A stretch of 64,000 nucleotides of DNA from Pseudanabaena sp. OTE_70b_metabat_355. Lineage in GTDB: Bacteria; Cyanobacteriota; Cyanobacteriia; Pseudanabaenales; Pseudanabaenaceae. The stretch covers positions 120-64,119 of the forward strand of contig JANMFC010000526.1 of NCBI GenBank assembly GCA_031377675.1, in the 5' to 3' direction. Shown piece after piece: positions 19,823-50,932 of this stretch. How positions within the stretch are numbered: the stretch's first letter is position 1; every line of letters begins with the position of its first letter. Below the pieces are notes generated by a model. The model had not been told where the DNA came from. It ran no database searches and was given only the letters and a program-made list of their open reading frames with translations. A program made the position numbers and the translations under genes.

Positions 19823-22786
19823 ATGATGCATCATCCCGACCCGAACGAGAAGTCCCGTGAACAAAGAATGGTAAAGAAGGACGCGGTTATGCGTCGTCTT
19901 CTTGCGGCGACTTTGTCTGTCAGCAGCTTGTGGCAGCTCATGCCCCCCACCGCAGTAGCACAAGTTGCTACTCCTCTGACTGCGGCTGGTACAGCGATCG
20001 ATAACACCGCCACAGGTACTTACATTGATCCCAATACTGGCACAGTGATAAACGCCACATCTAACCCAGTCACGGCGACAGTGGCTGAGGTAGCTGGTGT
20101 AACTGTCGTTTCGTCAGGAACGATCGACGTAAACGGCGGTAGTGTCACTACTGGTGATTTTGTTAATTACAGCTTCTTGATTACCAATACTGGTAACGAT
20201 CGCACGGCTCTGCACATTCCTACTTCCGCGACTACTACAGCAGCTGGTACTCTTGGTACAACTACACTGCCTGCTGTTCCGAACGTATTGCCTGCTACTG
20301 GGAGCAGAAGTGTATATGTCACCGAAATTAATGGCGTAGTCTTAACCTCACCTGTACTACTGCCTGCGAGTGGTAATACGAATGATCCTTTATTTATTAC
20401 TGCCGTTAATGGTTTAGCCTCTGGGGCTCTTCTCCCACCAGTAGGCGATATTCCGTTAGGTGCTGGCAGTATTCCTATTGGTGGCACGATCAAGGTGGTT
20501 GTCCCTGTCACGATCGCCGCAACGACCGCAGGTACACTAATACCAGTAACTTTGGGTAATACAGGAACTTATGTTGGCGATGTTGGCACTAACACCCAAA
20601 ACCAACCTGATGCGGGAAATCCGACTGCTATCCCACCTACTCCAGTTGAAACTGGCACTGATCTCGGTGGAGCAGATGAAGTCTACACCATCAACGTGAC
20701 CACAGCTTTACGAGCTACAGCACCCGCTAATGGCGTTCGTGAAGCCAGTGCCAAAAACACACAGACTCTTGCGACCCAAATCAATAACCTCGCCCTAGCG
20801 ACCGTCCTCAAAAAGCGCATCGGCTATGATACCAAGGGTACTGCAAGCTTTGCCGATGACACGCTAACCTATCGACTAGACTTGAATGTCGAAACATCCG
20901 CACCTGCTGGCAGTACAGGTATTACACCTGGGGCATTGACTGGTACAGCTATCAGAACCAAAGCCAATTCAGGCGTACTTGTAGCAACAACGGAAAATAA
21001 GGTCTTAATTTCTGATGTCATTCCTGCCAACACGATCTTAGATGTATCAGCATTAACACCTGCCACGGTGACCATTAATGGTGTGGTTTGGACAAGGGTT
21101 TATAGCACTCAACCTACAACAATTTCCGCATTAGCGCCTACTCAAGAGTGGTTGCTTGACGTTCCAACTGGTACTCCTGTTGTAACCCGCATTGGTTACA
21201 TTGCCAATGGTCCGATCGCATCAGGTTACTCAACCACAGGTGCTAGTGATCTTCTTGCGTTGAGAGTTCAAGTCATCACAACTGGGCTTACCGCTGTAAG
21301 CTCACCTGTGACGATCGCCAACATTGCCCAAGTCTTTGGTCAAACAGCACCTACTAGCGGTCCAGTTCTTGCGATTAGTCCGACCAATCCTCTGGTTTAT
21401 GACGAATCAGGCGACCAAAATCCGAACAACTACGAAAGTGGTTCTCCATCCGTACCCTCGTTCACCGATCCTCTATTTCCTGCTGCTGGTGTACCTCCTC
21501 TGCCCACTGGTATTGCAAGTCCTACAGGTGCCAACGGCACTGACACCAATGGAGTTGGCAACAACAACACAGGTACTGGACCTGGTGGGGAAGATAACAC
21601 CTTCACGATTAACCCTCTTGGCTCGGTCTTAAATGGTCCTCCAGGACAAGCAGGCGCGGTCGGACCTAACGGAAATAACACCGACTTTGTTAACAAATCC
21701 TTAGCCCTTCCTGCTGGTTTAGCATCTGGTCTTGCTCTCAGTACTGCTACGCCTGCGATTACGCTTGCCCAGCGCACCGTTGTCTTTACCAATACAGTTC
21801 AGAACCCCTCCACCAACACAGCCCAGTTGGACAACGTAACTTTGGAGCCAATCACGGCTGCTCAAGCTGCGGCTGCACCTACACCTGCCTTAGCTCTAGC
21901 AGACTTTGTGCTTCCAACTACAAGCAATGGTGAACCTTTACCTAATGGCACTACGGTCACAATTGCCTATCCTGTTGGTTCTGTTGCTGGTGTATCGGGA
22001 AATACAGCCACTTACACATTAAGTGCGACTGGGTTTGATCTAACCCAAAGCACAATTGGTGCTGTAACTTCTACAACAGGTGTCGCAGTTAAGCCAGTCA
22101 GAATCAATTCTATTGCCATCGGTGATCCTCAGGACTACAACGTAATTGTGGTATTGCCAGTCTCCGCCCTTGCGACAAGAGCCTATTCTGTGCCGATCGT
22201 CGCTTATGTAGACAGTAACGTCAGTAACTCAGGTGTTCTTGGTACTGGTAGTGGCACTGTTGCTGATCCTTTCAGAGGTGGATTCAAGAGTTTTGATTCA
22301 GATGCACCATTCAACATCAAGATTGATCGCGTGTACACAGGCTACTTGGATCTCGATAAGAAATCTCGCGTCATTCAAGGAACTGGTCCCGCAGTAGCTG
22401 CTGGTGACGTAGCGTTTTCCAATAGTGCAAAGAGTCCAGCCCCTGGAAACATTCTTGAGTACCTTCTTACTTACAAAAACATTTCCACACTCGCAATTGG
22501 CACTGCCAATGTCGTTTTGAATGCGAACAACATCGTTATTACTGAAGATGGCGCGACTCTTCCTAACAACTGGGCTACGACAACTTTGAACGTGCCTAGT
22601 ACTGCCACTGTAGCCTTAGATGCTGCTGGCGTTGCGACCCCTACTTACAGCGCTGTGATCACCTTCTTCAACGGTGCGACAGCTGTGACGACAGTAGATC
22701 CCAACGTAACTAGGTATCTCGATAGCATCCCATCTCTAACCCCTGGTCAGACTGGATTCTTCAGATTCCAACGTCAGGTCAAATAG
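19823..22786 (+). CDS. Secreted beta-strand-rich DUF11-like surface protein, 987 aa (candidate major filament subunit)
   Basis: Signal peptide ending AVA|Q, N-terminal AAGTAIDNTATGTY motif, Ig/DUF11-like domains, and a C-terminal DUF11-like domain ending GFFRFQRQVK. Confidence 0.85.
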   Translation: MMHHPDPNEKSREQRMVKKDAVMRRLLAATLSVSSLWQLMPPTAVAQVATPLTAAGTAIDNTATGTYIDPNTGTVINATSNPVTATVAEVAGVTVVSSGTIDVNGGSVTTGDFVNYSFLITNTGNDRTALHIPTSATTTAAGTLGTTTLPAVPNVLPATGSRSVYVTEINGVVLTSPVLLPASGNTNDPLFITAVNGLASGALLPPVGDIPLGAGSIPIGGTIKVVVPVTIAATTAGTLIPVTLGNTGTYVGDVGTNTQNQPDAGNPTAIPPTPVETGTDLGGADEVYTINVTTALRATAPANGVREASAKNTQTLATQINNLALATVLKKRIGYDTKGTASFADDTLTYRLDLNVETSAPAGSTGITPGALTGTAIRTKANSGVLVATTENKVLISDVIPANTILDVSALTPATVTINGVVWTRVYSTQPTTISALAPTQEWLLDVPTGTPVVTRIGYIANGPIASGYSTTGASDLLALRVQVITTGLTAVSSPVTIANIAQVFGQTAPTSGPVLAISPTNPLVYDESGDQNPNNYESGSPSVPSFTDPLFPAAGVPPLPTGIASPTGANGTDTNGVGNNNTGTGPGGEDNTFTINPLGSVLNGPPGQAGAVGPNGNNTDFVNKSLALPAGLASGLALSTATPAITLAQRTVVFTNTVQNPSTNTAQLDNVTLEPITAAQAAAAPTPALALADFVLPTTSNGEPLPNGTTVTIAYPVGSVAGVSGNTATYTLSATGFDLTQSTIGAVTSTTGVAVKPVRINSIAIGDPQDYNVIVVLPVSALATRAYSVPIVAYVDSNVSNSGVLGTGSGTVADPFRGGFKSFDSDAPFNIKIDRVYTGYLDLDKKSRVIQGTGPAVAAGDVAFSNSAKSPAPGNILEYLLTYKNISTLAIGTANVVLNANNIVITEDGATLPNNWATTTLNVPSTATVALDAAGVATPTYSAVITFFNGATAVTTVDPNVTRYLDSIPSLTPGQTGFFRFQRQVK

Positions 22787-22798
22787 TAGTTGATCGGC

Positions 22799-22841
22799 AT
22801 GGAGTAACTAGGATTACATTTACTAATCCTAGTTACTCCAT
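22799..22841 (+). terminator. Perfect 18-bp stem hairpin just after the 987-aa gene
   Basis: ATGGAGTAACTAGGATTA-N7-TAATCCTAGTTACTCCAT. Confidence 0.7.
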
Positions 22842-22996
22842 TCTTAATTGAGATAGGGAACATTTGGGTTCCAATGTCAAGTCAAGTAGATAATTGATCT
22901 TTGAATTATTAACTAGGCTTAGCTAGGTAGCTTGCCTAGTTAGTACTTCCTTGCCCAAATACTATTCACACATTGTTCACAACTCAGACAAACCAA

Positions 22997-23563
22997 ATGA
23001 AACGTATAAACTTAATTGGCTTAGGCGCGATCGCCTTGATCGCCACGACTGCTTTTTCTGGAGTGATGCCAGGACTAGCCACCTTGCAGTCGCGTGACAC
23101 CGCGATCGCCCAGACCGCTAAACAAGATTCTCCCGTCAAATTAGTTCTCGCTGCCGAAAAAAGAGCATTACTTGATATTGTCTCTGGACAGAACAAATGG
23201 GTTCCACTTGCGCCTAACGCATCACTACAGCCTGGCGAAACAATTCGTTATGTCGTCACCGCCAGCAATACCAGCGATCGCGCCATCAAAAATCTAGTTG
23301 TGACTCAACCGATTCCCAAAGGTTCAGTTTATGTTCTAAACTCAGCAACCTTACCCAGTATTGACGGAGCAAAGGTAGAGTACAGCATCGATGGCGGCAA
23401 AAACTACAGCGCCAAACCCACAATTCGCGTCAAGAACGAAAACGGCGAAATTGTCACTAAGCCTGCACCTGAGACTATGTATACAAATGTCCGATGGACT
23501 TTTGGTGAGAGTCTTTCTCCAAAAACAGCTTCCAACGCAACTTATCAGGTTCGCATTCGCTAG
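22997..23563 (+). CDS. Secreted single DUF11-like domain protein (candidate periplasmic chaperone/cap)
   Basis: Signal peptide MKRINLIGLGAIALIATTA..., PGETIRYVVTASN, NLVVTQPIP, ends ATYQVRIR; ATG at 22997 preferred over TTG 22973. Confidence 0.85.
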   Translation: MKRINLIGLGAIALIATTAFSGVMPGLATLQSRDTAIAQTAKQDSPVKLVLAAEKRALLDIVSGQNKWVPLAPNASLQPGETIRYVVTASNTSDRAIKNLVVTQPIPKGSVYVLNSATLPSIDGAKVEYSIDGGKNYSAKPTIRVKNENGEIVTKPAPETMYTNVRWTFGESLSPKTASNATYQVRIR

Positions 23564-23716: not shown

Positions 23717-23777
23717 CAATCATGAGGATCGCTAATTTTTAAAGATGCTTTAAGGCAATTTGAGGTTACTTGTTTCA

Positions 23778-25364
23778 ATGAAGATTAAAAGTTGCACAAC
23801 AAAACAAAAAATTCTGCGAAACAGCTTCAAGTTTGCCGCAACTATTCTGATGGCTGCATCTCAAATCTGCCAATCCGCCCTTGCACAAGGACAGTCTCAA
23901 CAAAGACGACCTGAACGAAGAGCAACATCAGCAGCCACGGTTGAAATTTTTAACACGGCTGCGTATCAATACAGCTTTCCCGATCCCAATGATCCTAAAA
24001 AAGAAATTACTATTAAGAGTGAGTCGGCACAACTTCAAGCGGAACTGATTGACCCGTTCGGTAGGGTGACAGCTTGTGATGGTGGGCTTCTGTCTGATTA
24101 CACAGGCTTTAGTGTCGGTTTGTATGAGCCTCTTAACGATCTTGGTGACTTTGGCTTGCCAATCGTTTTAACTGGGACAGTGCCGCCAAATCAAGTCTCA
24201 GCTAGTAATCGATTTGTGGGACTAGAGCCAAATTTTTATAATATTAATCCCTTTTTCTTAACCAACGGCGATCAAGGCAAATTTAACTTCCTGTATGACG
24301 ACAGTCGTGGTCAAGTTGATATCGGTCGTGTCAATATTCTTGTCGTAAAAACTGCTGCTAACTCATCTTTAGGTGGAAGAAGAATAAAGATTACGATCAC
24401 TTCACGGGTTGGAAACATTGTCGGCTATACAGCGACTTCGTTAGACGGAAAAGCAATTACCACAGATGGTGGAGGCACTTCGGTTAACGGTACGATTGAC
24501 GTTGCTAATGCCGCTACAGTTGGACTTGGCTTGGCGGTGTTTAATCTTGCCATTTCATCATGCGATGCCGTATCTCTACAAATTTTAAAGACAGGCGATC
24601 GCGCTGCTGCACAACCTGGCGATATCGTCATTTATCGCTTAAATATTCGCAACCTTTCTACATCCGCAATCAGAGATCCTGAAGTTCGCGATGATTTGCC
24701 GCTCGGATTTCAATATGCAGAAGGCTCCGTAAAAGCTGAATTTGGTGGAGTACAAGTTCCCGTCACCATCGAAAAGAACGGCAGAAGTCTGATCTTCCGT
24801 CCCAACATAGAACTCCCTAGTGCCAGAGACAATGTTGCGTTGACGGTCGTTTATGCCGCACAAGTTACCAATGATGCCATTCGTGGCACAGGCATCAATC
24901 GCGCCACAGTTCAAGGAACACTTAGTTCTAATAACTCGATCGTCCGTGACGGTCCCGCATTTCATAAGCTCAGAGTTAGCCCCGGAATTTTGTCTGATTG
25001 TGGAACTTTAGTCGGTCGAGTATTTGTCGATAAGAACTTTGATGGCGAGCAGCAACCAGGCGAACCAGGAGTTCCCAATGCTGTGCTTTATATGGACGAT
25101 GGTAATCGGATTGTCACCGATCCTAATGGTCTATATTCTCAAAGTTGCGTACTTTCTGGCAGTCGGACTTTAGCGATCGACCTAACTTCTGTGCCTGGCT
25201 ATACCCTCGCGCCAAATCTGTATTTTGCCGAACGCAATAGTCAATCTCGATTGGTACGCTTAGCCCCTGGCAGTTTAAATCGAGTTAACTTTGCGGTTAC
25301 TCCCGTTGCGCGTGGACTAAGTACCAACATTAACAGTAAGCCAGAACAAGGTGGAGCAAAATAA
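23778..25364 (+). CDS. Secreted DUF11 + SdrD-B-like domain protein (candidate base/anchor subunit)
   Basis: Signal peptide; EIFNTAAYQY motif; one complete DUF11 domain (LQILK...RDDLP...GINRATV); C-terminal GRVFVDKNFDGEQQPGEPG. The stop overlaps the next ATG (TAATG). Confidence 0.85.
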   Translation: MKIKSCTTKQKILRNSFKFAATILMAASQICQSALAQGQSQQRRPERRATSAATVEIFNTAAYQYSFPDPNDPKKEITIKSESAQLQAELIDPFGRVTACDGGLLSDYTGFSVGLYEPLNDLGDFGLPIVLTGTVPPNQVSASNRFVGLEPNFYNINPFFLTNGDQGKFNFLYDDSRGQVDIGRVNILVVKTAANSSLGGRRIKITITSRVGNIVGYTATSLDGKAITTDGGGTSVNGTIDVANAATVGLGLAVFNLAISSCDAVSLQILKTGDRAAAQPGDIVIYRLNIRNLSTSAIRDPEVRDDLPLGFQYAEGSVKAEFGGVQVPVTIEKNGRSLIFRPNIELPSARDNVALTVVYAAQVTNDAIRGTGINRATVQGTLSSNNSIVRDGPAFHKLRVSPGILSDCGTLVGRVFVDKNFDGEQQPGEPGVPNAVLYMDDGNRIVTDPNGLYSQSCVLSGSRTLAIDLTSVPGYTLAPNLYFAERNSQSRLVRLAPGSLNRVNFAVTPVARGLSTNINSKPEQGGAK

Positions 25365-28300
25365 TGAAAAACACTTCTGCTCCTCTTCTCAAGCTAGCAA
25401 TTTTCGCCTTCCCGCAAGTGATGTTGTTGCTGATTGCACCATCAGTAAGAGCGGATGTAGTCTCAGATGTAAGCACCGAAAGCAAAAAAACTGACATCAA
25501 ACAAAAAGACTCGTTAGCGAATCCAGTTAAAGTTTTACCTGTTAACGCTGAATCGGTAAAGGTTGAGCCTATATCGGTAAAAGTTGAGGCGATCGCTTCT
25601 CCAAAAGTCGATCCCCAAAACATTACCATCGAAAAGCCTGCCGAAAAGCCTACTGAAAAGGTAACAGGTCAAAACGAACCCGCAAACACTGCTAACCTGA
25701 CAACAAATCCTCCAAAAAATCCTCCAAAAAATCCAACAGTCTCTCAATCTCCCGTTGCCCCAGAAACTACTCCAAATCCCACTACACCAACCCCAGCTAC
25801 CGCTCCAACTAATTCCACTTCGCCACGCATAACCATCCTCTCGCCCACCGCTAACACGGTGATGGATGCTCCCGCCGCAACAGTGGTAATCCAAAGCCCT
25901 AGCAATACCAAAGTTGAACTTTTGGTAAATGGCAAACTCGTTGACTCTAATTCAATTGGGCGATCGGAATTAGATGAAGTCAATAAAACCATCACGCAGA
26001 CTTGGTATGGCGTACCCCTACAAGCAGGTGAAAACATCCTTTCCGCAAGGGTCGCAGGAACTGAGCAAACCCTGAGTTCAGTCACTGTCAAAGTCAGAGG
26101 CACACCCGTCAAACTGGCGATCAATACCCTAGAATCGCGCATTCCTGCGGATGGACGCTCGTATGCCACAGTTGATGGACAACTCGTTGATGAGAATGGC
26201 AATCGCTCCAATTGGGATGCGATCGTTACTTTACAGGCTAGCGATGGTGAGTTTATTGGTACTGATGCGTCACCAGAGCAGCCAGGGTTTCAGGTTCAAG
26301 CCAAGCAAGGTAAATTTACCGCGCAATTAAAATCGGGGCTGAAAGCAGGCACAATCATCATCCGAGCGCAAAATGCTCAGATGGAAACTTTTACGCAGGT
26401 TCAGTTTGAGACGGATTTGCGTCCATCCTTAGTCACGGGTGTAATCGATCTACGGGTTGGTGCTAGAGGTACGGATTTTTATCGTAGTTTGCGTGAGTTT
26501 TTACCTAGCGATCGCGATAATCGCACTCAAGTCGATCTCTATGGCGCTGTGTTCGGCACAGGTCGAGTGGGCGAATGGCTAGTCACAGGCGCATATAACA
26601 ATAGCCGCACCCTTAATCAAGATTGCAGTGGTAACAGTAGCCTATTTAGTGGCGAAAAATATTGCGGTACGCAATATCCCGTCTATGGCGATAGCTCGAC
26701 CGCGTCCCAAGCCGCCCGTTCCTACGACAGTTTATATTTGCGTTTTGAGCGGACTTCATCCGTAAAAGATGCCAGCCCCGACTACTTCATGTGGGGTAAC
26801 TTCAATACTGAGGAGTTTGCCTCGCGATCGCAGCAATATTCTTCCATTTCGCGTCAACTACATGGAGCCAAAGGTAATTTTAATCTTGGTGATGTGCAGC
26901 TCACGGGATTTTATAGCAATGTCGGCAAAGGCTTTCAACGCGATACGATCGCTCCCAATGGCACAAGTGGAACTTACTTTCTCTCGCGTCAGCTATTAAT
27001 TAGTGGCAGTGAGAATGTATTTGTCGAGCTAGTTGATTTCTTTAGTGCAGGAACAGTGGTTTCTCGTAAAGAAGCGGTGCGGGGCAAAGACTACGACATC
27101 AACTACGACAATGGCTCATTGCTATTTCGGCAGCCTCTTTATCAAACCGAACTAGGTGATAAGGGCGAACTCCTGCGCCGTCAGGTTGTGATTACCTATC
27201 AAAATGAACAAGCAGGCGGAGATAGTAGTATCTACGGCGGACAACTGCGCTATCACCTCAATCGCAGCCAATCTCAACCAAGTTCACTCGCTGTAAATTA
27301 TTTCAAAGAAAGTCAAGGGATTCGTAATTTTGTCCTGTATGGGGCAAATGCGCTAATTTCGTTTAGCGAAAAAACTCAACTAACAGCCGAATATGCCCGA
27401 TCAGAGAATGATTCGGAAGTTGTGGGATTTGTGAGTGGTTCGGCATATCGATTTGAATTAAATAGCGAGATTGCAGGTATCCTCGGCAAAATCTACTACA
27501 ACAAAGCTGAGACAGGTTTTGCGAATAATGCCACGATCAGTTTTGTGCCAGGGCAGACTAGGTTCGGCACACAGTTAAGTGCTAAGGTCGGCTCTACGAC
27601 AGATCTAAGATTTCAATACGAGCAGGAAAATAATAATGGCATCGCGCCCCGCCCTTTAACTGTTCTCACCGATTTGCTTACTCCCCGTCAGGAAGCAGTT
27701 CCAGGTACGGCGGTGGATAATTCCTTACGCACGATTAGCTTTGGATTGCAGCAAAATATTGGCGCGGCTCTGCTCAATCTCGATCTGCTCTATCGCGATC
27801 GCCAAGATCGCCAAACACCAAATGTACTATCGAGCAACTCAACCCAACTGCGATCGCGGGTATCAGTGCCGATCGCCGAGAACCTCAAATTTTCTGCTCA
27901 AAATGAAGTCAGTCTCTCCTCTAGCGCTGATGCCGTAATTCCCGATCGCAGTGTTGTCTCTCTAGATTGGACAATTGTTCAAGGCTTGACCGCAAGATTG
28001 GGTCAGCAATGGTTCCATTCAGGCGCTTTAGCAGGAAGTTCGATTACCAGTGCGGATTTGCTGGGAGAATATAGACTCGGCACTGATACTAGTTTGACGG
28101 GGCGTTATTCCGTTGTCGGTGGCGGCAACACCACCTCTACACAGGGTTCGGTAGGACTGAATCAGCGTTGGCAAATCATGCCAGGTTTGCGCTTAGGGTT
28201 TGGCTATGAAAAAGTATTTGGCACGTTTGCTTCCGCAACCACGACCGCGACAGGCACGCAGTTTCAGCAGCCTGTCGCGGTTGGGCAGTCCTCTAGCTCT

Positions 28301-31117
28301 TTGACTAGCCAGAGTGGTGATAGCTACAATATCGGACTGGAATATACCGACAACCCCGATCTGAAGGGCAGTATCAGGTTTGAGAATCGTAGTGGCAACA
28401 ACAGCAGCAACACGGTGCTTAGCGCTTCGGTTCTCGGTAAACTCACGCCTGCGATGAGCATGATGTTCAACTATCAGCAGTCTAGCGCCGCCAACCAAGG
28501 ACTGTCAGGTATGGGGACGATCGCTAATCTCAGGGTGGGGCTAGCCTATCGCGATCCCCAAGATGATAAATTTAATGCTCTACTTCGTTATGAATACCGC
28601 CAAAATCCGAGCATTATTCCCGAATCACTGTTGATTGGTGGCGGTAGTGGCTATGTTGATCACACTCTCGCCCTTGAAGCGCTTTATGCTCCTAACTGGC
28701 AATGGGAATTTTATGGCAAGCTCGCACTCCGCAACAGCACCACCACGATCGCTAAAGACTTTACGGGTGTATCCAATACCAACTTGACTCAGTTTCGAGC
28801 TACCTATCGTGCGGGTTATAACGTGGAGCTTGTGGGTGAAGCGAGAATGCTCAACCAGCCCACCGCAGGCTATAGCGAAATCGGATTAGTGGGAGAAGTT
28901 GGCTATTACCTGACCCCTGATTTACGCTTAGCTTTGGGCTATAGCAGTGGTTCGATTAATACCGATCGCGATTTTAGTGGTTCGCGCTCCGCAGGTGGAC
29001 TATATGCAGGGATCACGGTTAAGCTCAACGAATTGTTTGATGGCTTTGGTTTACAAAAGACTCCACCACGTCAGCAACAGGAGCCAATCGATCCGCAAAC
29101 ACCTGTATTGCAGGAGCCAAAACCCGCCCAAAAATTATCGGCGGCTTTAACGTCTGACGAAACTCAGATCATTAGCTTGAACGTAGCGCGATCGCTGACA
29201 TTCCAAGATAGCAAGCAAGGCGATAGTGCCGAGTTAGCCGCCTCAGACATTGCGATTCTGGAAAACCTTGCCTCAGTCTTAAAAGAATTTAACAATCTCT
29301 CCATTGATATCCAAGGACAAATTGGTTCTCTTGCCGATATGAATTCGGGTGAGAATGTGGCGGCGAATCGGATGATGGCGGCGAGAAAATATCTACTCAA
29401 TCGCGGTGTTGCTTCTAATCAAATGACTTTACGTTCATTGGGTGCTGTGGCGGCTACACCTAGCAATCCTGATAGTAAGATTGCATCAGCAAATTCTTCG
29501 GCAAACGCCATGCCGATCAGCTTTGCACTCACAGGTCGCGCCGATATCTTTAACGCGATCGCTACGAGACTGCAAACGATGGCAACGAGTACGCCAGCGA
29601 CTGAATTTTTACAAGCAATTTTACCGAAGGTTGAGCCGACTCTCCAAGCTAATGCTGCGATCGCGCCCACCAATGCTCCTAATCGACCCGTTGCGAATAC
29701 GACTGTGGGGGTCAACTTTAGTAATGACGGTAGAATTGCCGACTTGAGCTATGCCACCCTCGATCGCTTGATCGAGCGACTGAAGGCTAACCCCAACGCA
29801 ACTACCGAAATTCAATCTGGCTCAGCGCTAACGGCTTCAGCAACTCAAGATCTGGATATGTTTAGGCTGACCGCAATCAGAGAATACTTGCTGGATAAGG
29901 GAATTAGTTCCGATCGCATTTTACTCAGTACAAATAGCGCGACTAATAATCAGGCGGCTTCGGCACAGGTATTAATTTCGCTCAATGTCGATGATGCTAA
30001 CACCAACATCGCGGCAACGCCGACTACTCCAACCACACAAGCAAGTTCTCAAACTACTCCAACTACTCAAGCAAGTTCTCAAACTACTCCAACTCCACAG
30101 GCTAGCGCTACGACCGCGCCTGTTCCACTTGCTAGCGCTGACATCTTGAACTCGCCATTAGCAATGCTGCTAAACAATGGCGATCGCCGCCTCAATAGTT
30201 GGCTCGAAAGTTCGTTGCCCAACTTGCCATTTGTTGATGCGTTCAATCCTCAATTTAATGGTCAATTCAATCTCCAGTTTATTGACGCACTCCAAATTCC
30301 AAGCTCTGTTCCTAGCGTTGGACTCACCCAATTGTTAACTCAGTTACCCGTAACTACCGATTCGCTGTTATTAGCGATCGCCCCTGCTGAGAATAATAAT
30401 CCTAAGCCGACATCTAGTCTTTGGAGCTATGCCTTTGAGAACTCAACAACACAACTCATGAGCAAGTTGCTCGATCTGTCCACACCGCTTGCCACAGCCA
30501 ACACTACCCCCGCTACACAGGCTAGCGCCACAACTGAAGTTATACCCTTGGCAAGTGCAAATACTCTAGTCTCGCCATTGGCGCTGTTGTTAGATGGCAG
30601 CGATCGCCGCTTCAACAATTGGATCGAAAGCTCGTTACCAGACTTTATATTTAATAGTCAAGTTAATACTCTATTCACTGGTCAGTTTAGTGACTCGTTC
30701 CGAGTATCTAATACGGGAGCGACTCAACTGTTAACTCAATTGCCAATCACTCCTGAAGCATTGCTATTGGCGATCGCGCCTATTGATCGGTCAGTCGATA
30801 ACAAGCCCACATTACCAACAGCCGAATCTAGTCGCATCTTGAGTTACTACTTTGACAATTCGCCCACACAACTCGTAAGTTTATTATTGGGTAATGAACG
30901 GGCGGCTAATAGTCCATCGGCAATTAACAATAATGCTCAGGCTAACGCCAATAGCCCCGATGACAGCGCCAATCGTCGTCTTGCAAACGCCTTTAACTTC
31001 CTGTTAAGTAAGGATGGCGACACGGTGACAGCGTTCCTGCGATCGCTGGGAATTAGTAGTACCGAGAAAAGCGGCTTTGTGATTGACCCCGCTCAATTCA
31101 ATCAGATTAAGAATTAG
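25364..31117 (+). CDS. Very large predicted outer-membrane beta-barrel protein with N-terminal Ig-like domains and C-terminal OmpA-like domains, 1917 aa
   Basis: Signal peptide, P/T linker, Ig-like domains (PADGRSYATV), about 870 aa of amphipathic beta-strands ending GLYAGITVKLNELF, two degenerate OmpA-like segments, and a duplicated C-terminal repeat. Confidence 0.75.
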   Translation: MKNTSAPLLKLAIFAFPQVMLLLIAPSVRADVVSDVSTESKKTDIKQKDSLANPVKVLPVNAESVKVEPISVKVEAIASPKVDPQNITIEKPAEKPTEKVTGQNEPANTANLTTNPPKNPPKNPTVSQSPVAPETTPNPTTPTPATAPTNSTSPRITILSPTANTVMDAPAATVVIQSPSNTKVELLVNGKLVDSNSIGRSELDEVNKTITQTWYGVPLQAGENILSARVAGTEQTLSSVTVKVRGTPVKLAINTLESRIPADGRSYATVDGQLVDENGNRSNWDAIVTLQASDGEFIGTDASPEQPGFQVQAKQGKFTAQLKSGLKAGTIIIRAQNAQMETFTQVQFETDLRPSLVTGVIDLRVGARGTDFYRSLREFLPSDRDNRTQVDLYGAVFGTGRVGEWLVTGAYNNSRTLNQDCSGNSSLFSGEKYCGTQYPVYGDSSTASQAARSYDSLYLRFERTSSVKDASPDYFMWGNFNTEEFASRSQQYSSISRQLHGAKGNFNLGDVQLTGFYSNVGKGFQRDTIAPNGTSGTYFLSRQLLISGSENVFVELVDFFSAGTVVSRKEAVRGKDYDINYDNGSLLFRQPLYQTELGDKGELLRRQVVITYQNEQAGGDSSIYGGQLRYHLNRSQSQPSSLAVNYFKESQGIRNFVLYGANALISFSEKTQLTAEYARSENDSEVVGFVSGSAYRFELNSEIAGILGKIYYNKAETGFANNATISFVPGQTRFGTQLSAKVGSTTDLRFQYEQENNNGIAPRPLTVLTDLLTPRQEAVPGTAVDNSLRTISFGLQQNIGAALLNLDLLYRDRQDRQTPNVLSSNSTQLRSRVSVPIAENLKFSAQNEVSLSSSADAVIPDRSVVSLDWTIVQGLTARLGQQWFHSGALAGSSITSADLLGEYRLGTDTSLTGRYSVVGGGNTTSTQGSVGLNQRWQIMPGLRLGFGYEKVFGTFASATTTATGTQFQQPVAVGQSSSSLTSQSGDSYNIGLEYTDNPDLKGSIRFENRSGNNSSNTVLSASVLGKLTPAMSMMFNYQQSSAANQGLSGMGTIANLRVGLAYRDPQDDKFNALLRYEYRQNPSIIPESLLIGGGSGYVDHTLALEALYAPNWQWEFYGKLALRNSTTTIAKDFTGVSNTNLTQFRATYRAGYNVELVGEARMLNQPTAGYSEIGLVGEVGYYLTPDLRLALGYSSGSINTDRDFSGSRSAGGLYAGITVKLNELFDGFGLQKTPPRQQQEPIDPQTPVLQEPKPAQKLSAALTSDETQIISLNVARSLTFQDSKQGDSAELAASDIAILENLASVLKEFNNLSIDIQGQIGSLADMNSGENVAANRMMAARKYLLNRGVASNQMTLRSLGAVAATPSNPDSKIASANSSANAMPISFALTGRADIFNAIATRLQTMATSTPATEFLQAILPKVEPTLQANAAIAPTNAPNRPVANTTVGVNFSNDGRIADLSYATLDRLIERLKANPNATTEIQSGSALTASATQDLDMFRLTAIREYLLDKGISSDRILLSTNSATNNQAASAQVLISLNVDDANTNIAATPTTPTTQASSQTTPTTQASSQTTPTPQASATTAPVPLASADILNSPLAMLLNNGDRRLNSWLESSLPNLPFVDAFNPQFNGQFNLQFIDALQIPSSVPSVGLTQLLTQLPVTTDSLLLAIAPAENNNPKPTSSLWSYAFENSTTQLMSKLLDLSTPLATANTTPATQASATTEVIPLASANTLVSPLALLLDGSDRRFNNWIESSLPDFIFNSQVNTLFTGQFSDSFRVSNTGATQLLTQLPITPEALLLAIAPIDRSVDNKPTLPTAESSRILSYYFDNSPTQLVSLLLGNERAANSPSAINNNAQANANSPDDSANRRLANAFNFLLSKDGDTVTAFLRSLGISSTEKSGFVIDPAQFNQIKN
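30022..30110 (+). repeat. In-frame 30-nt tandem repeat (TTPTTQASSQ, about 3 copies)
   Basis: actactccaaccacacaagcaagttctcaa / actactccaactactcaagcaagttctcaa / actactccaactccacaggctagc. Confidence 0.85.
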
Positions 31118-31131
31118 AGGGAGATAAGATT

Positions 31132-33300
31132 ATGAAAACGTCAATTACGAATTACGAATTACGAATTATCAGAAAAAGTAGCCTATTAATCGGTTGCTTT
31201 GGTTTTATGGTTGTGGCTTCTCCCTATGCGATCGCCCAAACCACGCCTAAACCACTCTCTCCCGTAGTCCTTAATTATCAAATTACGGTTAACAGTAATG
31301 AGGATGGTGAAATCAAACCCGATCGCGAGTTGACCTTGCGTGAGGCGATCGCGATCGCTAATCGTACTCTTGCGGTTGAAAGTCTGAGTGAGACTGAACG
31401 CGCTCAAGTTAAACCGTTTTCCAATATTAAAAATTCAACAATTAGTTTTAACTTACCGCCTAACAGCACTACGATCCGATTAAATAAAGCTTTACCCAAT
31501 CTTAGTAGCGAGAACTTGCTGATTGATGGCACAAGCCAAGCGGGTTATGACGCTAATAAATCCTTTGCTCAAGAATTAAAAATTCCCCAACCAATTGTGG
31601 CGATCACCCCTGTGGATGGTGTCGAGATATTTCGTGGTTTGACGATTGTTGCTGATGGCGTGACGATTAGGGGATTGAGCATCTATGGTTTTAACTCTCG
31701 CGAGAGTGTACCGACAACTACGCCCACGGCTGATATTTTTATTTCGCACCAAGCGCCGCCGCCTGATACTTCACAGCAACAGCAACCTGCGCCTAATGCA
31801 CCTTTTTATGATAAGGATCGCCCCCCTATTGGTGTAGTACTGGAGGCAAACTGGCTGGGGATCACCCCTGCTGGCACTATGCCTAAGCAGCCATCTGGGT
31901 TTGGGGTATATCTATTTAATAGTAAGGATGCAAGCATCCGTAATAATCGCATTGCCTACCATGAGGGTAGTGGGATCGTGTCACTGGTAAGGTCAACGGG
32001 TAGCCAGATTATCGAAAATGCGATTACGGACAATGGTTTTGATGGTATGCCCCACGGAATTTATCTCGAAGGTGAGATTGATAAGTTGCGAATTAAGGGC
32101 AATACGATCTGTGCTAATGATGGCAGTGGCGTGTATTTGTTTAAACCGAATGGCGCGATCGCCATTGAGAACAATCGAATTTTGTTTAATGCGCGGAGTA
32201 CGCTTTATTCGGCGATTTATCTGATGGGGAACGATCATCAAGTCACTAATAACGAGATTCGCAATCAACGCGGCGGTGGTGTGGCGATCTCCTCTTACCC
32301 CAAAAGCGATCGCGCCTTAATTCGTAAAAACAACTTTACAGCGCTCAAGGGTTTGAGCATTGATTTGATTGGTTTACGTCATGTCGGTGTCAGGGATTAT
32401 GTCACGGGTGATGGCATCAATCTCCAGCGTGATTCTAATTTTCGGCGAGTCGATACCGCCAATGGCGCGATTAATTCACCAATATTTTTAGCCTCTGCTT
32501 TTCCGATGTTTAGTAGCGATCGCGTGAATATTGATGGCAAAGCCGATCCTGATACGGAAGTTGATCTCTATCGCGTTGTGGGCAAAATCGATGCGAATTT
32601 ACCTTATGGACCGCTCAGTGAATATTTAACTACGGTTAAGACTAATAGTGACGGTAAGTTTGCGGCAACTCTCAAAAACATTAAAGTCGGTGACACGATA
32701 AGCGCGATCGCGACTGATCCAACCTACGGCACATCCGAGCCAGCCTTCAATGCCAAAATCATCAATCCTGATCTCTCATCGCCTACGCCTACGCCTATAA
32801 CTGCATCCCCTCCCGCCTGTACTTCACCACCACAAATTGTCGAGATTCCACCTGCACCGCCCGATCCGCCTAAACCGCCCTCCCCAATCGTACTTTCTGT
32901 GCCAAGGCGCATTCACTTTGCCCTTGACAAGGACTTTATTAGCGACAGGAGCGCTCTGATTCTCGATCGCGTTGCGGTCGTGCTTAATCAATACCCGACG
33001 ATCATTATTGCCCTTGAGGGACATACCGACTCTAGAGCCAGTGATGCTTACAACATTGATCTTGGTTTTCGCCGCTCTAAGTCTGCGCGGAATTATCTGC
33101 TCCGCAAAGGGATTGCTTCAGAACGGATGACGGTGAGAACCTTTGGTGAGAGCAGGTTAACCTCTCCAAACCGAGAAATTATCGACTTTGCCCGCGATCG
33201 CCGTGTGGAGATTGAGTTTACCGATATCCGCGATGTCGAGATTCGCTTTGAAAATCAAGAATCAGACTTGCAACTAGAACAACCAGGAGATCAAAAGTAA
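31132..33300 (+). CDS. CSLREA-like / right-handed beta-helix protein with C-terminal OmpA-like peptidoglycan-binding domain
   Basis: ITVNSNEDG...LTLREAI, beta-helix repeats (I.NN.I..N...GI), P-rich linker, IHFALDK...LEGHTD..ASDAYN..LG.RR...RRVE. The stop overlaps the next ATG (TAATG). Confidence 0.85.
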   Translation: MKTSITNYELRIIRKSSLLIGCFGFMVVASPYAIAQTTPKPLSPVVLNYQITVNSNEDGEIKPDRELTLREAIAIANRTLAVESLSETERAQVKPFSNIKNSTISFNLPPNSTTIRLNKALPNLSSENLLIDGTSQAGYDANKSFAQELKIPQPIVAITPVDGVEIFRGLTIVADGVTIRGLSIYGFNSRESVPTTTPTADIFISHQAPPPDTSQQQQPAPNAPFYDKDRPPIGVVLEANWLGITPAGTMPKQPSGFGVYLFNSKDASIRNNRIAYHEGSGIVSLVRSTGSQIIENAITDNGFDGMPHGIYLEGEIDKLRIKGNTICANDGSGVYLFKPNGAIAIENNRILFNARSTLYSAIYLMGNDHQVTNNEIRNQRGGGVAISSYPKSDRALIRKNNFTALKGLSIDLIGLRHVGVRDYVTGDGINLQRDSNFRRVDTANGAINSPIFLASAFPMFSSDRVNIDGKADPDTEVDLYRVVGKIDANLPYGPLSEYLTTVKTNSDGKFAATLKNIKVGDTISAIATDPTYGTSEPAFNAKIINPDLSSPTPTPITASPPACTSPPQIVEIPPAPPDPPKPPSPIVLSVPRRIHFALDKDFISDRSALILDRVAVVLNQYPTIIIALEGHTDSRASDAYNIDLGFRRSKSARNYLLRKGIASERMTVRTFGESRLTSPNREIIDFARDRRVEIEFTDIRDVEIRFENQESDLQLEQPGDQK
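31143..31168 (+). repeat. STRR-type heptamer repeat (AATTACG)x3 in a signal-peptide N-region
   Basis: aattacg aattacg aattacg aatta encoding ITNYELRI. Confidence 0.8.
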
Positions 33301-36300
33301 TGTTTAGAGCATTGAAAAATTTTTTAAATTCAAATTCTATTGGTAACAAGCGACGGGCTGCATCACCGAAACCTGAAAATCAAACTAAAAATCGAATCGA
33401 CAATCAAATTGAGAATCAGAGCAAGCGATCGGGAAGGATTGCTAGCAAAAATAGAACTAATAAAAAAGCAAAAATATCTATCCAAAAGTCTCGTAAACAA
33501 AATCAACTAAAACGGGTTAGCCGCTTTTTAGGGATTGTATTTACGACTTTTGTGCTGATGTTACAGCTTTCAGGCTTAGGGCTATTATTTACACTACAGC
33601 CAGCTTATGCCGCCACAACCTTAGCGATCGAACCTATTACTTGGGATTTTGTGGGCTTAGATAGTAACAAACCTGAATCTCAAGGTCCAAACACCTATGT
33701 TGTCGGCGCAAGGGTCTGTAATTTAGGTATTGAAGATGCCCGCAATGTCAGCGTAAGATTTATTAAAGACGGCGTAGATAATGGTTATGCGTTTATTCGT
33801 CTTCAGTCGGGGGAAGTCTACACCTTTGATCGGGTTAAAGCGAATGTACCTGCCAATAATGCAGTTAGTGCAGATATTTATGGACGTATTAAATTAACAA
33901 CTGGAAGTATTGCTGGCGGTTATACATTTGACACTCCCGCAAATGGCAGTCTACTCAAAACTAAGTACAGAATCAATTACACTCCGACTAATTGCCAAGA
34001 TTTTTATTACAACTTTGAAGTAACCCGTACCGATGCCGCATGGAATACCTATCAGAAATATTATCTTAGAGCAACAGCCGACAATGCAGGCACAGTAGAA
34101 ACGGCTCGCCCTCGTCAAAGTTACATTGAGAAGTTAATCTCACAGGCTAGAAATGAAGTTTATTTCTTTGGTTGTGATGCCCTAGGAGGAGTAGCTTATG
34201 CTGGTCCGACTGTGAGTGTAGGCGTGGGAGATACATTTACCTGCCAAGCCCGCGCCCATACGGCGACCGCCTATCCGCAAATGAGTTTTACCTCGGATAT
34301 TCCCAATGTTATTTTCCAAGTTTTAGACGTTCAGAGTACTTATAGTGATCCCGTAGGTGGTGTCAATAGTACGGTTTATGCGGATGGTTGTGGTTGGGTT
34401 CAAGATCCGACCGATCCTCGTTATCACCTCAGTCCAGGCGCTTGTAGTAGTGAGACGGGTTTTGCCAATACATATTCTGACCAATATCCCTACACAGCAC
34501 CGCCAACAGAAGGTAAGGGTGCGGTGGGTAATGATATCACCACAATTTATAAAATCAAGGTAATCGCTTTCCCGAATGGTATTCCGAATCCGATTAAAGT
34601 TTCTAATGTAATTTTGGATTATTCGGGTTCAAGTTATCACTACAACGCTGATTATGGTATTGCTCCTAACGTTGTTAATATCAATGTGGTAACTCCTTCT
34701 GCGACTGATTTAAGCGTCGTTAAAAGTCACGTTGGCAACTTCAATTTTGGCAATAATACTTATACCCTCACTGTCAGTGATGACGTTAATAGTTCGAGCG
34801 CAAAGGCTCCTGTTATTTTAACGGATACTTTACCTGCGGGTTATACATTTGTAGATCAGAATGCTCTACTTTCAGGGACGCAACCTTTAAGTGGTCCGAG
34901 TGCAGTCAATTGGAATTGTGAAACATCAGGACAAGTCCTGACTTGCCTCTATGACACTGACGGAGATGGCGTGGGTGATAATTTCCCTGATGGCGGAACA
35001 AATGCTTTAACGTTGAATGTAAATATCGCTAATGGTGCTTTGCCCAGTGGAACAACTAGCACCAACTTTGTGAGGGTTGCTTTAAATACGGCTCAAACTG
35101 ACTCTAATCCTGCGAATAATACGTCGAGTGATCCAACTACTATATTACCTAATGCGGATTTGGCGATCGTCAAAACCCTTGCCGATGGTGACTTAACGGT
35201 TGGTGGTAATCAAGCTTCTTTTGTAACTGGAAGACAGGGTACTTATAATCTACAGGTCACTAATTTAGGGAATATCACAGCGACAACGCCCACAATTACG
35301 GATACATTACCCTCAGAGTTACAATTTGTTTCAGGAGTAGGGACTAACTGGACTTGTAGCGCGGTGGGTCAAAATGTTACCTGTACATCGAGTCAAAATA
35401 TAGCTCCTGCCGCAACAACTAATGTTACTTTGACAGTCCTAGTCAGAGATACTAGCAGCACAAGTACGATTAATACGGCCATTGTTTCGAGTCCTACTTA
35501 TGACGCGATTCTAACTAATAATACGAGTTCTGTAACCACTCCAATTACTCGACCGACTCCTGATTTAAGTATTACCAAAACTCCATCACCCGTAACTCTA
35601 ATTCTCAATAAAAATAGTAATTACACTATCAATGTAAGTAATGTTGGTTCGGATGCAACCAGTGGCACGATTAAGGTAGATGAGATATTTCCCACTGGTT
35701 TTGGGATGCAATATATCGCTCATGCTGGTTCGGGTTGGAGTTGTATTTACAGCGATAGCACCCCGACTACCCGCCCTTGTCAAAGTGGTGATACGACAAA
35801 TGGCACAGGCACAACTGTGGGAACTCAAAATATCACTTTCTATAATCCCGGTCCTTTGGCTGCGGGTGCGAGTAGTGCCATTACGTTAACGGTCAAAGCA
35901 ACTTTAGATCCAGGTTCTACTGTAAATAACACGGTTAAAGTCAGCACCCCAGGAGACGGTGGAACTGGTACAAAAACAGCGATCTCACCCACTAATATTG
36001 GTAAACCAGATTTAAGCATCATCAAAACCCATGCTGATCCGATGACATTGAGTACCAATAATGACTACACTATTACAGTTACAAATTCTAGTACAGCAGG
36101 AACGGCAACAACCACTGGACCAATTAGCGTCACAGAAACCTTTCCTAGCACAGGTAGCTTTGCCTACGTTTCTCATTCTGGTTCAGGGTGGAGTTGTATT
36201 TTTGAAGCTACAGGAACTTCCCCTGTATCGCCTCGCGCCTGTCTAAGTGGTGACACTACAGGAACGGCATCTGGAACCACTAGAACCATCACTTTCTACA

Positions 36301-41825: not shown

Positions 41826-41988
41826 TAATTAAAAAACAAGGTCAAAAACATGAAATTCCCAGCTAGTCATTATTATCCCAGTCCACCTAGTTCTTTTCCC
41901 GAACCTATACCTAAAGCGATCGCGGGAAATCGTTAATATCCAAAGCTCAAGCAATCCGTTACCTAATCAACAGCTTTAAACAATAGCC

Positions 41989-44211: not shown

Positions 44212-44220
44212 TCCTGCCTA

Positions 44221-44250
44221 AAAGGGCTAACTGCCTACAGCTAGCCCTTT
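44221..44250 (+). terminator. Hairpin between the 740-aa and 275-aa genes
   Basis: AAAGGGCTA...TAGCCCTTT. Confidence 0.5.
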
Positions 44251-44284
44251 CTAATGGAGTCATCCCACAGCCAAAACACCATTT

Positions 44285-45112
44285 ATGTCAAAATCATTCT
44301 TTCGAGAATCTACTCGCTTACTAGTAACCACCGCCCTACTTTTTGGCAGTCAATTTCCTTTGACTAAATCAGTTTTGGCTCAATCGACTCCTGCTGGCAC
44401 TATTATCCCCAATGCCGCGCTCGGCAGTTTTGAAGGAGTAATATCAGTTACAACGGTTCCTCTTAATTCTAATTCCGTAACTTTTGAGGTAACCGCGCCA
44501 ATTGCGTCTAACCCAAGACTATTGCTAGTCAAGCGCATCACCGCTATTAATGGTGTTGCGATTACAACTGTAGTTAATGATGGACTTGCCTCATCGGCTG
44601 ACGATAATGTGAACTGGATCTCTACGACTTCAACCACTCCAGTCCCCGCTTCGGCTCCTCCAAATGATTATTTAAAAGGAGACATTACTCGCAATGATGT
44701 CATCCCAGGCGATCGCCTAGAATATACAATTTATTTCCTATCTGCGGGTGATGTGAATATTAGTAATGTAACCATCTGCGACTTAATTCCGCCTAACACA
44801 ACATTTGAAAACAATGCTTATGGTAGTAATTTAGGTATAGTTTTTGCCAACAGTACACCGATCACTCCTCTAACGGGGCTGTTTGATGGCGATCGCGCTA
44901 ATTTTTATCCCGCAGGAAGTCTGCCACCCACCACTTGCAAAAAACCGACAACTAACGCAACTTTGACGGCTGCTGATAACACAGATGGATTAGTTGTAGT
45001 CGATGTGGTGAAAATATCTGATCCCCTACCCAATTTCTTGCCACCTGCCACAGGTGTAGGAGCGCCCGCAAATTCCTATGGTTTCGTTCGTTTTCAAGTT
45101 AAAGTTAAGTAG
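44285..45112 (+). CDS. Secreted 275-aa protein made only of the shared N-terminal motif and the shared C-terminal DUF11-like module
   Basis: Signal peptide (VLA|Q), TPAGTIIPNAALGSF...SNSV, PRLLLVKRIT...EYTIYFL...ICDLIP...SYGFVRFQVKVK. Confidence 0.86.
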   Translation: MSKSFFRESTRLLVTTALLFGSQFPLTKSVLAQSTPAGTIIPNAALGSFEGVISVTTVPLNSNSVTFEVTAPIASNPRLLLVKRITAINGVAITTVVNDGLASSADDNVNWISTTSTTPVPASAPPNDYLKGDITRNDVIPGDRLEYTIYFLSAGDVNISNVTICDLIPPNTTFENNAYGSNLGIVFANSTPITPLTGLFDGDRANFYPAGSLPPTTCKKPTTNATLTAADNTDGLVVVDVVKISDPLPNFLPPATGVGAPANSYGFVRFQVKVK

Positions 45113-48773: not shown

Positions 48774-48776
48774 GAC

Positions 48777-50895: not shown

Positions 50896-50932
50896 TAGAT
50901 TTGACTTTTAAAGTTTAATTAAAAAATTTCTA

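Follow-up and report, generated by a model that had tools for sequence, protein, structure and literature searches.

A predicted 38-strand outer-membrane barrel encoded with DUF11 proteins in Pseudanabaena: a candidate conduit and anchor for a surface fibre

How proteins built from DUF11 domains cross the outer membrane is the question raised by a gene cluster of Pseudanabaena sp. OTE_70b_metabat_355 (assembly GCA_031377675.1, contig JANMFC010000526.1, positions 120 to 64,119 of the forward strand). The study that renamed DUF11 as CLIPPER describes Gram-negative fibrillar adhesins and gives no export route for them (PMC12617251). In the stretch of 64,000 nucleotides that we analysed (the window), we identified among several DUF11 genes one that encodes a 1917-aa protein with a giant predicted beta-barrel of no curated family. 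Based on the anatomy of this protein and its genomic context, we propose, with a probability of roughly 55%, that it serves as the outer-membrane conduit and anchor of a DUF11 fibre of the donor-strand, isopeptide type.

The open reading frame (ORF) of the barrel protein spans positions 25364-31117 of the window (+ strand) and is present in one copy in the genome (4.63 Mb, 566 contigs). The last base of the upstream gene's stop codon is also the first of the barrel gene's ATG (TAATG), an overlap of 1 nt. The closest named homologues, all in Pseudanabaena spp., are 91-92% identical to it, and identity to Nostoc-type members is 57% across the whole barrel. From N- to C-terminus, the gene encodes the following elements:

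25364 to 25453, + strand: putative Sec-type signal peptide, aa 1-30 (...APSVRA/DV), assigned by sequence inspection.
25454 to 25819, + strand: low-complexity linker rich in P, T, K and E, aa 31-152 (~120 aa), matching no model.
25829 to 26407, + strand: two immunoglobulin (Ig)-like beta-sandwich domains, aa 156-245 and 250-348, predicted by AlphaFold2 (AF2), weak Pfam matches and Foldseek.
26429 to 29026, + strand: predicted beta-barrel region, aa 356-1221 (~865 residues), from AF2, DSSP, amphipathicity, Foldseek and co-evolution.
26600 to 26731, + strand: long loop between wall strands 3 and 4, aa 413-456, of low AF2 confidence (pLDDT).
26921 to 27211, + strand: predicted domain inserted within the barrel, aa ~520-616, from an isolated AF2 model and co-evolution.
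29027 to 29053, + strand: conserved post-barrel motif NELFDGFG (KFDExLF in distant relatives), from alignments.
29171 to 29506, + strand: OmpA-like domain 1, degenerate, aa 1270-1381, from Pfam, NCBIfam and PDB matches.
29690 to 29983, + strand: OmpA-like domain 2, more degenerate, aa 1443-1540, from jackhmmer and PDB/NCBIfam matches.
30131 to 31114, + strand: C-terminal module in two copies, aa 1590-1729 and 1730-1917 (~330 aa in all), recognised as an internal repeat.

This layout contains every element that an initial annotation of the window had listed, at the positions given there. The Ig-like N-terminal domains that it noted correspond to the two AF2 beta-sandwiches and to weak Pfam and Foldseek matches; the second domain is Invasin_D3/Big_1-like, with sub-threshold Pfam matches to Invasin_D3 and GH2_C5 at aa 253-342, and in Foldseek the domains matched the Ig domains of GH2 proteins. 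The run of strands, placed at about 26415-29040, was found at nt 26429-29026, and the two OmpA-like segments, described as degenerate, have profile matches and lack both the Asp of the GHTD motif and the NRRVE strand. The duplicated C-terminal module, the inserted barrel domain and the 120-aa linker are additions to that description.

We modelled aa 150-1240 in AF2 with a 93-sequence alignment. The model was all-beta, with two sandwiches followed by 41 strands (mean predicted local distance difference test score, pLDDT, 73.2; predicted template-modelling score, pTM, 0.50). All 41 strands of the barrel region were at least 7 aa long by DSSP and had alternating (dyad) hydrophobicity. When the barrel part of the model was compared with the PDB in Foldseek, as the initial annotation had suggested, the best matches were giant outer-membrane barrels and the matches were large outer-membrane barrels only: SlpA, LptD, MtrB, SprA and FimD. 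Each had a probability of 1.0, with template-modelling (TM) scores of 0.1-0.35 and 7-13% identity, the top match being SlpA (8ae1_A, E=2e-9). Hence, the fold class of the model is clearly that of an outer-membrane barrel, without a specific relative. Searches with curated profiles agreed: no Pfam or NCBIfam model matched the 891-aa barrel region or the C-terminal tail even at E<=10, and a PDB sequence search and a 93-sequence profile search returned OmpA-like domains only and nothing on the barrel. In scans of the whole protein at E<=0.01, NCBIfam gave only OmpA-like models and Pfam gave OmpA plus the sub-threshold Ig matches. The PapC/FimD, TpsB/POTRA, secretin and TolC motifs reported as missing from the protein were also missing from these searches, in which no such model appeared even at E<=10.

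Co-evolution provided a second line of evidence for the barrel. We applied mean-field direct coupling analysis (DCA) to 268 full-length barrels (effective number of sequences, Meff, 156) and summed the scores of 601 strand columns along antiparallel ladders, the strand-pair sums being the only informative measure because single-pair DCA scores were too noisy at this Meff. Strands that are neighbours in the sequence had a mean ladder score of 4.06, compared with 1.99 +/- 0.70 for non-neighbours, and 27 of the 38 proposed wall pairs scored above the 95th percentile of the non-neighbour pairs. The first strand (356-366) and the last (1209-1221) were reciprocal best non-neighbour partners (score 3.9), a value exceeded by 13 of 780 non-neighbour pairs. 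The top non-neighbour pair of all joined 511-518 with 621-633 (score 5.8), and residues ~520-616 are therefore excised from the wall in our assignment. Together, model and co-evolution support a closed wall of 38 predicted strands, 7 before the insert and 31 after it. The claim of a giant beta-barrel of unrecognised family thus held up in the AF2 model, in Foldseek and in co-evolution, and no curated model covers it.

The lengths of the connections between wall strands gave the topology. Even-to-odd turns have a mean of 3.6 residues (maximum 9) and odd-to-even loops a mean of 17.5 (Mann-Whitney p=5e-4). Turns that are short in the periplasm and loops that are long outside are canonical for such barrels, and this numbering places both termini in the periplasm. 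Independently of loop parity, the same location of the termini follows from the peptidoglycan (PG)-binding domains of relatives, which sit on either side of the barrel: among 313 relatives that carry the hallmark motifs of the family, OmpA-like domains lie C-terminal of the barrel in 57 and N-terminal in 16, and S-layer homology (SLH) domains lie N-terminal in 2. Both observations suggest that the Ig-like domains are also periplasmic. The prediction therefore has the features expected of outer-membrane beta-barrels: its amphipathic strands are even in number and form a closed wall, and they are joined by short turns on the periplasmic side and by long loops on the external side.

Two of the connections with extracellular parity stand out in the alignments. 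The 44-residue loop at aa 413-456 contains a Cys pair (C421 and C434) and the family-wide motif YP[VI]YGDSS (aa 438-445), whereas the insert, which lies in the odd-to-even connection between wall strands 7 and 8, holds the most conserved motifs of the family (GTSGxY, SExVxIE, RDR, DYxIDYxxGxIxF and VTYE). In the Pseudanabaena protein these read GTSGxYFLS, SExVxxE, DYxIxYxxGxxxF and VVITYQ, with RDR replaced by DFF. The hallmarks YPxYGDSS, GTSGxY, RDR, DYxIDY and VTYE are conserved in 81 sequences from many phyla. Modelled alone (residues 512-622) with this 81-sequence multi-phylum alignment, the insert formed a compact beta domain (pLDDT 86.6, pTM 0.76), and the model identifies it as an autonomous domain. 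Foldseek searches with its fold had no match in the PDB or BFVD at E<=1e-3; the best sub-threshold neighbours, a weak lead, were sandwiches like those of phage tails, necks and tail-fibre N-termini (TM 0.4-0.6). Phage tail-fibre N-terminal and tail-neck adaptors (TM 0.5-0.6) dock fibres onto rings, a possible functional analogy. Because conservation is unusually strong for external loops, the insert and the YPVYGDSS loop may lie over or in the lumen, where they could act as a plug, gate or collar. As an alternative to a plug or gate, the insert is a candidate fibre-docking domain.

The genes around the barrel point to what it may carry. The cluster, all on the + strand, contains in addition to the barrel gene:

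19823 to 22786, + strand: DUF7925 protein, 987 aa, with a donor-like N-terminal motif, candidate fibre subunit (Pfam, sequence).
22973 to 23563, + strand: small single-domain DUF11-like protein, 196 aa (likely ATG at 22997; Pfam, comparison).
23760 to 25364, + strand: partner gene, 534 aa from a TTG (likely ATG at 23778), whose stop overlaps the barrel start (Pfam, NCBIfam).
31132 to 33300, + strand: secreted right-handed beta-helix protein with a canonical OmpA/Pal-like PG-binding domain, 722 aa (Pfam, NCBIfam).
33300 to 45112, + strand: three further DUF11/GEVED proteins of 2841, 740 and 275 aa, candidate fibre or tip subunits (Pfam, NCBIfam).

The 534-aa partner has a donor-like strand at its N-terminus and, besides SdrD_B, a single complete DUF11/CLIPPER domain. 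The 2841-aa protein has 12 DUF11 repeats plus GEVED, and each of its complete repeats begins with a Lys-bearing strand (DL.I.KT) and ends with V.N.A.V. The mature N-termini of four cluster proteins resemble this final V.N.A.V strand, Asn included: AGTAIDNTATGTY in the 987-aa protein, AGTPITNEATGSF in the 740-aa protein, AGTIIPNAALGSF in the 275-aa protein and ATVEIFNTAAYQY in the 534-aa partner. The resemblance agrees with the donor and acceptor scheme of the initial annotation. Pfam and NCBIfam searches of the cluster proteins found no PapD_N or PapD_C domain and no second outer-membrane component. The small DUF11-like protein is also encoded in the Nostoc, Leptolyngbya and Acinetobacter clusters. 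Directly 3' of the DUF7925 gene is a perfect 18-bp stem-loop (window 22799-22841, + strand) without a clear T-tract; by attenuating transcription, it could determine the stoichiometry of the first gene's subunit relative to the rest of the cluster.

The association of the barrel with DUF11 genes is strict. In a sample of 201 cyanobacterial genomes spread evenly over the phylum (96 genera), the barrel was present in 30 genomes (24 genera) and the DUF11+SdrD_B partner also in 30, 28 of which carried both (Fisher p=1.3e-29). The partner was directly upstream on the same strand for 31 of 31 barrel copies in the 26 genomes of class Cyanobacteriia, and in one cyanobacterial genome (G128 of the sample) partner and barrel share one open frame. 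DUF7925 was encoded in 20 genomes, every one with the barrel (p=1.7e-20), and within the class Cyanobacteriia its gene precedes the barrel by 4.1-5.5 kb, in each case on the barrel's strand. The gene order of the Pseudanabaena cluster recurs in Nostoc PCC 7524 and Leptolyngbya FACHB-261.

The association extends well beyond Cyanobacteria. A phmmer search of 1.84 billion cluster representatives matched 1561 clusters. The distant relatives are proteins of 1000-2800 aa with a C-terminal barrel preceded by DUF11, SdrD_B and Big_1/Invasin_D3 domains and, in one lineage, SLH. Scanning genomes with a 5-sequence alignment identified at least 582 loci, from Desulfobulbaceae, Nitrospira, Geobacter/Geomonas, Acinetobacter, Moraxella, Psychrobacter and Polaromonas, among others, and also from Gemmatimonadota, Verrucomicrobiota, Acidobacteriota and Persephonella. 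We analysed 80 non-cyanobacterial loci of Desulfobacterota, Nitrospirota, Proteobacteria (Acinetobacter, Moraxella, Polaromonas), Gemmatimonadota, Verrucomicrobiota, Acidobacteriota and Aquificota. DUF11 domains were within the barrel ORF (stop-to-stop frame) in 66 of them, so that in most other phyla the barrel and DUF11 are encoded in one frame. Fifty of the loci exceed 20 kb, and all but two of these (48) contained further DUF11 ORFs, nearly all on the strand of the barrel. A small DUF11-like ORF (~175 aa, range ~165-210 aa) lay upstream in 47 of the 80, the 176-aa protein of Acinetobacter matching the 196-aa protein of the window at E=5e-8. The succession [DUF11-SdrD_B]-[Ig]-[barrel], accompanied by the small protein and by long DUF11 proteins, thus forms a mobile module that is conserved in multiple phyla. 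The proposal that the barrel is dedicated to DUF11 genes, made from the Pseudanabaena cluster, is supported by the partner synteny, the co-occurrence of DUF7925 and the DUF11 domains in the barrel ORFs. In an Acinetobacter johnsonii locus (L016, positions 15458-16144), the next DUF11 gene is separated from the fused barrel gene by one for a 228-aa secreted, apparently helical protein without a Pfam match; the cyanobacterial cluster has no counterpart.

These features suggest how the system might work. The protein would be inserted by the beta-barrel assembly machinery (BAM) as an outer-membrane barrel of ~38 strands, with its N-terminal Ig-like domains and OmpA-like tail in the periplasm. With its DUF11+SdrD_B partner, it would form the base of a surface fibre of Sec-exported DUF11, DUF7925 and GEVED proteins, in which the N-terminal strand of one subunit completes the C-terminal acceptor domain of another and is possibly locked by an intermolecular isopeptide bond. 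The partner may be the cell-proximal, chain-ending subunit, by a logic like that of PapH; we read it as the chain end because it has a donor strand, is constantly coupled or fused to the barrel and, in the reading of the initial annotation, has no acceptor. Because the subunits are predicted Sec substrates and the cluster has no other outer-membrane component, the barrel is the sole candidate for their route over the outer membrane. Its size and context also point to a translocon, in which the width of the barrel would allow the Ig-like stalk to pass the membrane in folded form and then be held there, and the insert and the YPVYGDSS loop would serve as plug, gate or collar. We also consider, more tentatively and at somewhat less than even odds, that the module represents an undescribed diderm-wide fibre pathway: CnaA-type (DUF11/CLIPPER) subunits would be exported by Sec, polymerised by donor strands and intermolecular isopeptide bonds, released folded via the 38-strand barrel and covalently rooted through the coupled or fused basal subunit. 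Such a pathway would operate in Cyanobacteria, Proteobacteria, Desulfobacterota, Nitrospirota, Gemmatimonadota, Verrucomicrobiota, Acidobacteriota and Aquificota, and probably also in Deinococcota.

Among known systems, the proposed role has its nearest functional analogues in the usher, as a platform for donor-strand subunits, and the autotransporter, as a barrel with a coupled or fused base module. As with the PapC/FimD ushers, the predicted outer-membrane barrel is interrupted by a beta-domain and flanked by periplasmic domains, and it shares an operon with genes for Ig-like proteins whose N-terminal strands may be of donor type; the proposed role as assembly platform and anchor via a terminal subunit would also follow the PapH-like logic. 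However, there is no sequence similarity to ushers, Foldseek TM scores are 0.18-0.35, and the predicted 38 strands contrast with the 24 of ushers. The insert is in an extracellular-parity loop, whereas the usher plug is in the periplasmic beta6-beta7 turn; the cluster has no PapD-like chaperone and conserves instead the small DUF11-like protein; the basal subunit is translationally coupled or, in most other phyla, in one open frame with the barrel; and the subunits are CnaA-type isopeptide domains. Neither Usher, PapC_N nor PapC_C matched the whole protein at E<=0.01 or the barrel at E<=10, and we rejected an usher homologue. Of the term "usher-like" in the initial annotation, only the analogy remains, because homology, strand number, position of the insert and the missing chaperone all speak against more. 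Like the type V systems (Va, Vb and Ve), on the other hand, the family combines passenger and barrel in one polypeptide (most relatives) or in two coupled genes (here), with Invasin_D3/Big_1-type Ig domains and a BAM-type C-terminal strand. Yet type V barrels have 12-16 strands, the Ig domains beside this barrel are probably periplasmic, and PG-binding modules separate passenger and barrel in some relatives. A type V barrel was rejected because Autotransporter, ShlB, POTRA and IAT_beta models gave no match and the strand number differs.

The other giant barrels offer likeness in size only in part. SprA, the 36-strand translocon of type IX secretion, passes folded Ig-like domains through its barrel, and by analogy a 38-strand lumen could take them as well. 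SprA is also a giant single-chain barrel with room for such cargo and was among the Foldseek matches (8gl6_A and 6h3j_A). Nevertheless, the TM scores were ~0.1-0.2 without sequence similarity, SprA has ~2400 aa with large caps, and the cluster showed no C-terminal domain signals of type IX secretion and no Por genes. Deinococcus SlpA, the best Foldseek match, shares a large barrel and a cell-wall-binding module but has 30 strands, an N-terminal SLH domain and a coiled coil, forms an abundant trimer, has no DUF11 context and aligned at a TM of 0.2. Although the Foldseek matches were significant, membership in the SprA, LptD or SlpA families was rejected on TM scores of 0.1-0.3, identities of 7-13% and the absence of a PDB sequence match.

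The closest description in the literature is that of three predicted 38-stranded outer-membrane beta-barrel proteins of D. radiodurans with N-terminal invasin-D3 Ig-like domains (von Kugelgen et al., 2022; PMC9388160, SI Table S3), a table listing that proposes neither function nor partners. Compared by description only, these proteins have the same succession of an invasin-D3-type Ig domain and a barrel, and our independent count was also 38; the Pseudanabaena protein adds two OmpA-like domains and the duplicated tail. With its Ig domains, ~860-aa barrel and motifs, it belongs with a 38-strand Ig-barrel family of the All3289 and D. radiodurans AAF11946 type, the Deinococcus member being assigned by description. 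All3289 of Anabaena PCC 7120 (1289 aa) had been dismissed as an atypical "OmpA-like" protein (PMC9705863).

The GHTD Asp and the Arg of OmpA/Pal domains contact meso-diaminopimelate (meso-DAP) of the PG, and the canonical domain of the 722-aa neighbour has the corresponding motifs (LEGHTD...FRRS...RRVEI). OmpA-like domain 1 of the barrel protein matches PF00691 at aa 1287-1371 (E=1.4e-10; 41.8 bits against a gathering cut-off of 27.2). In an alignment with the neighbour's domain, domain 1 has GQIG and domain 2 has S--G in place of GHTD, and both domains keep the Arg but lack the GHTD Asp and the NRRVE/RRVE strand. PG binding by the barrel's own OmpA-like domains is doubtful because the DAP-binding Asp is absent, and so is the tether to PG proposed for the barrel in the initial annotation; it is the 722-aa neighbour that carries a canonical domain. 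PG-binding domains are absent from 238 of the 313 family members, and the arrangement of two OmpA domains and tail is a speciality of Pseudanabaenaceae and Leptolyngbyaceae. The C-terminal module (~140-190 aa) has the motif ASA[DN][IT]L.SPLA.LL...DRR.N.W.ESSLP, and a linker rich in T, P, Q and S precedes each copy; most Pseudanabaena homologues have one copy, and two are present here and in the closest relatives.

Several results weigh against a conduit and anchor of this kind. The pTM of the whole model was only 0.50, and co-evolution gave weak support to the wall pairs w3-w4, w4-w5 and w6-w7, for which reason the strand count could be 36-40. No usher plug was among the top 50 PDB matches of the insert fold, and our literature search found passing mentions but no functional study of any member of the barrel family. 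In 18 relatives, an OmpA or SLH domain lies between the DUF11/SdrD_B modules and the barrel, which implies that the "passenger" is at least partly periplasmic, and possibly the whole chain. The last observation also speaks for a different arrangement, in which the barrel is only an anchor, or part of a periplasmic scaffold, and nothing crosses it, the DUF11 chain linking the outer membrane to PG. Chlamydial OmcB is a DUF11-repeat protein for which periplasmic models have been proposed, and a scaffold would agree with OmpA or SLH modules embedded in or appended to the chain, with the periplasmic termini of the barrel and with the canonical OmpA protein encoded next door. We consider it unlikely, because a plain anchor needs neither 38 strands nor a conserved insert, a patchy distribution (30 of 201 genomes) is unlike that of a core envelope element, and the cluster encodes adhesin-type modules (GEVED, SdrD_B, and 12 DUF11 repeats in 2841 aa), which CLIPPER fibrillar adhesins use outside the cell (PMC12617251). 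The PG-binding domains of the 18 relatives also count against an autotransporter or two-partner-like system, in which the barrel would display only its own partner and the other DUF11 proteins would use another route or merely bind. The type Va order of the fused relatives (N-terminal passenger, C-terminal barrel) and the translational coupling of partner and barrel genes speak for such a system. Still, it seems rather unlikely given that 38 strands far exceed the 12-16 sufficient for type V, that no Autotransporter, ShlB, POTRA or IAT_beta model matches, that clusters across phyla retain the small protein as well as DUF11 genes of the ~900-aa and giant kinds, and that donor-like N-termini suggest a polymer.

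The remaining explanations fare worse. The Foldseek match to D. radiodurans SlpA (E=2e-9) and the OmpA-like domains after the barrel would suit a cell-wall-tethered envelope staple like SlpA, or a general porin, with functionally unrelated DUF11 neighbours. This is very unlikely considering a TM of only 0.2, the 238 of 313 members without a PG-binding domain, the missing binding Asp, the near-absolute synteny or fusion with DUF11 and the restriction of the barrel to 24 of 96 cyanobacterial genera. A porin for exopolysaccharide export, working with the downstream beta-helix (NosD/pectate-lyase-like) protein, is suggested by the position of the beta-helix gene directly 3' of the barrel here and in Leptolyngbya FACHB-261. 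It is hardly plausible: the clusters that we examined in Nostoc PCC 7524 and Acinetobacter lack that gene, the Pseudanabaena cluster contains no glycosyltransferase, Wza or Wzc genes, and the invariant partner is a DUF11 protein. As for a TonB-dependent receptor, the name that the PGAP annotation pipeline gives to many homologues, only these database names favour it. The absence of any TonB_dep_Rec, Plug or NCBIfam receptor match even at E<=10, the 38 strands as opposed to 22, and an N-terminus of Ig domains without a plug effectively refute the label.

Other features of the window lie outside the fibre cluster. Just downstream of it are a FemAB-like, spermidine-synthase-like and third-gene operon (46249-49466, - strand) and a defence-like AAA_15/AAA_21-DUF3696 ATPase with a small downstream gene (49678-51415, + strand). 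A 2540-aa ORF rich in S, T, N and G (55651-63273, - strand), without a Pfam match at E<=1e-3, has at its N-terminus a basic region and then a hydrophobic segment like that of pseudopilins (GFVLPTVTLVTLVV...) and may encode a giant HpsA-like or minor-pilin-like surface protein. At 3374-5464 (+ strand), a PanC-Cmk ORF (pantoate ligase/cytidylate kinase) runs in frame and stop-free into the sequence of an LptA/LptD_N-like protein with a Met and signal peptide of its own (MKKIFPITNH...LPATQAQ), either as a real fusion or through a lost stop or an assembly error.

The barrel family is real and widespread, spanning hundreds of species in many phyla, and the fibre system that we propose for it has no described counterpart. 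If the proposal is correct, the cluster would encode a new route for protein export across the outer membrane and fibre assembly, with a dedicated barrel coupled or fused to a DUF11 base module, and thus a Gram-negative counterpart of sortase pili without sortase or chaperone-usher machinery. The barrel itself would be a new size class of BAM substrate and the largest single-chain outer-membrane barrel proposed so far. Its recognition corrects the names "TonB-dependent receptor" and "OmpA family protein", under which homologues are widely mis-annotated, and the donor and acceptor pairs could serve as covalent protein-ligation tags. The route would also address how isopeptide-stabilised CLIPPER/DUF11 adhesins are displayed on the surface of Gram-negative bacteria, which was left unexplained when they were described (PMC12617251), and is relevant to adhesion, aggregation and biofilm formation in cyanobacteria.

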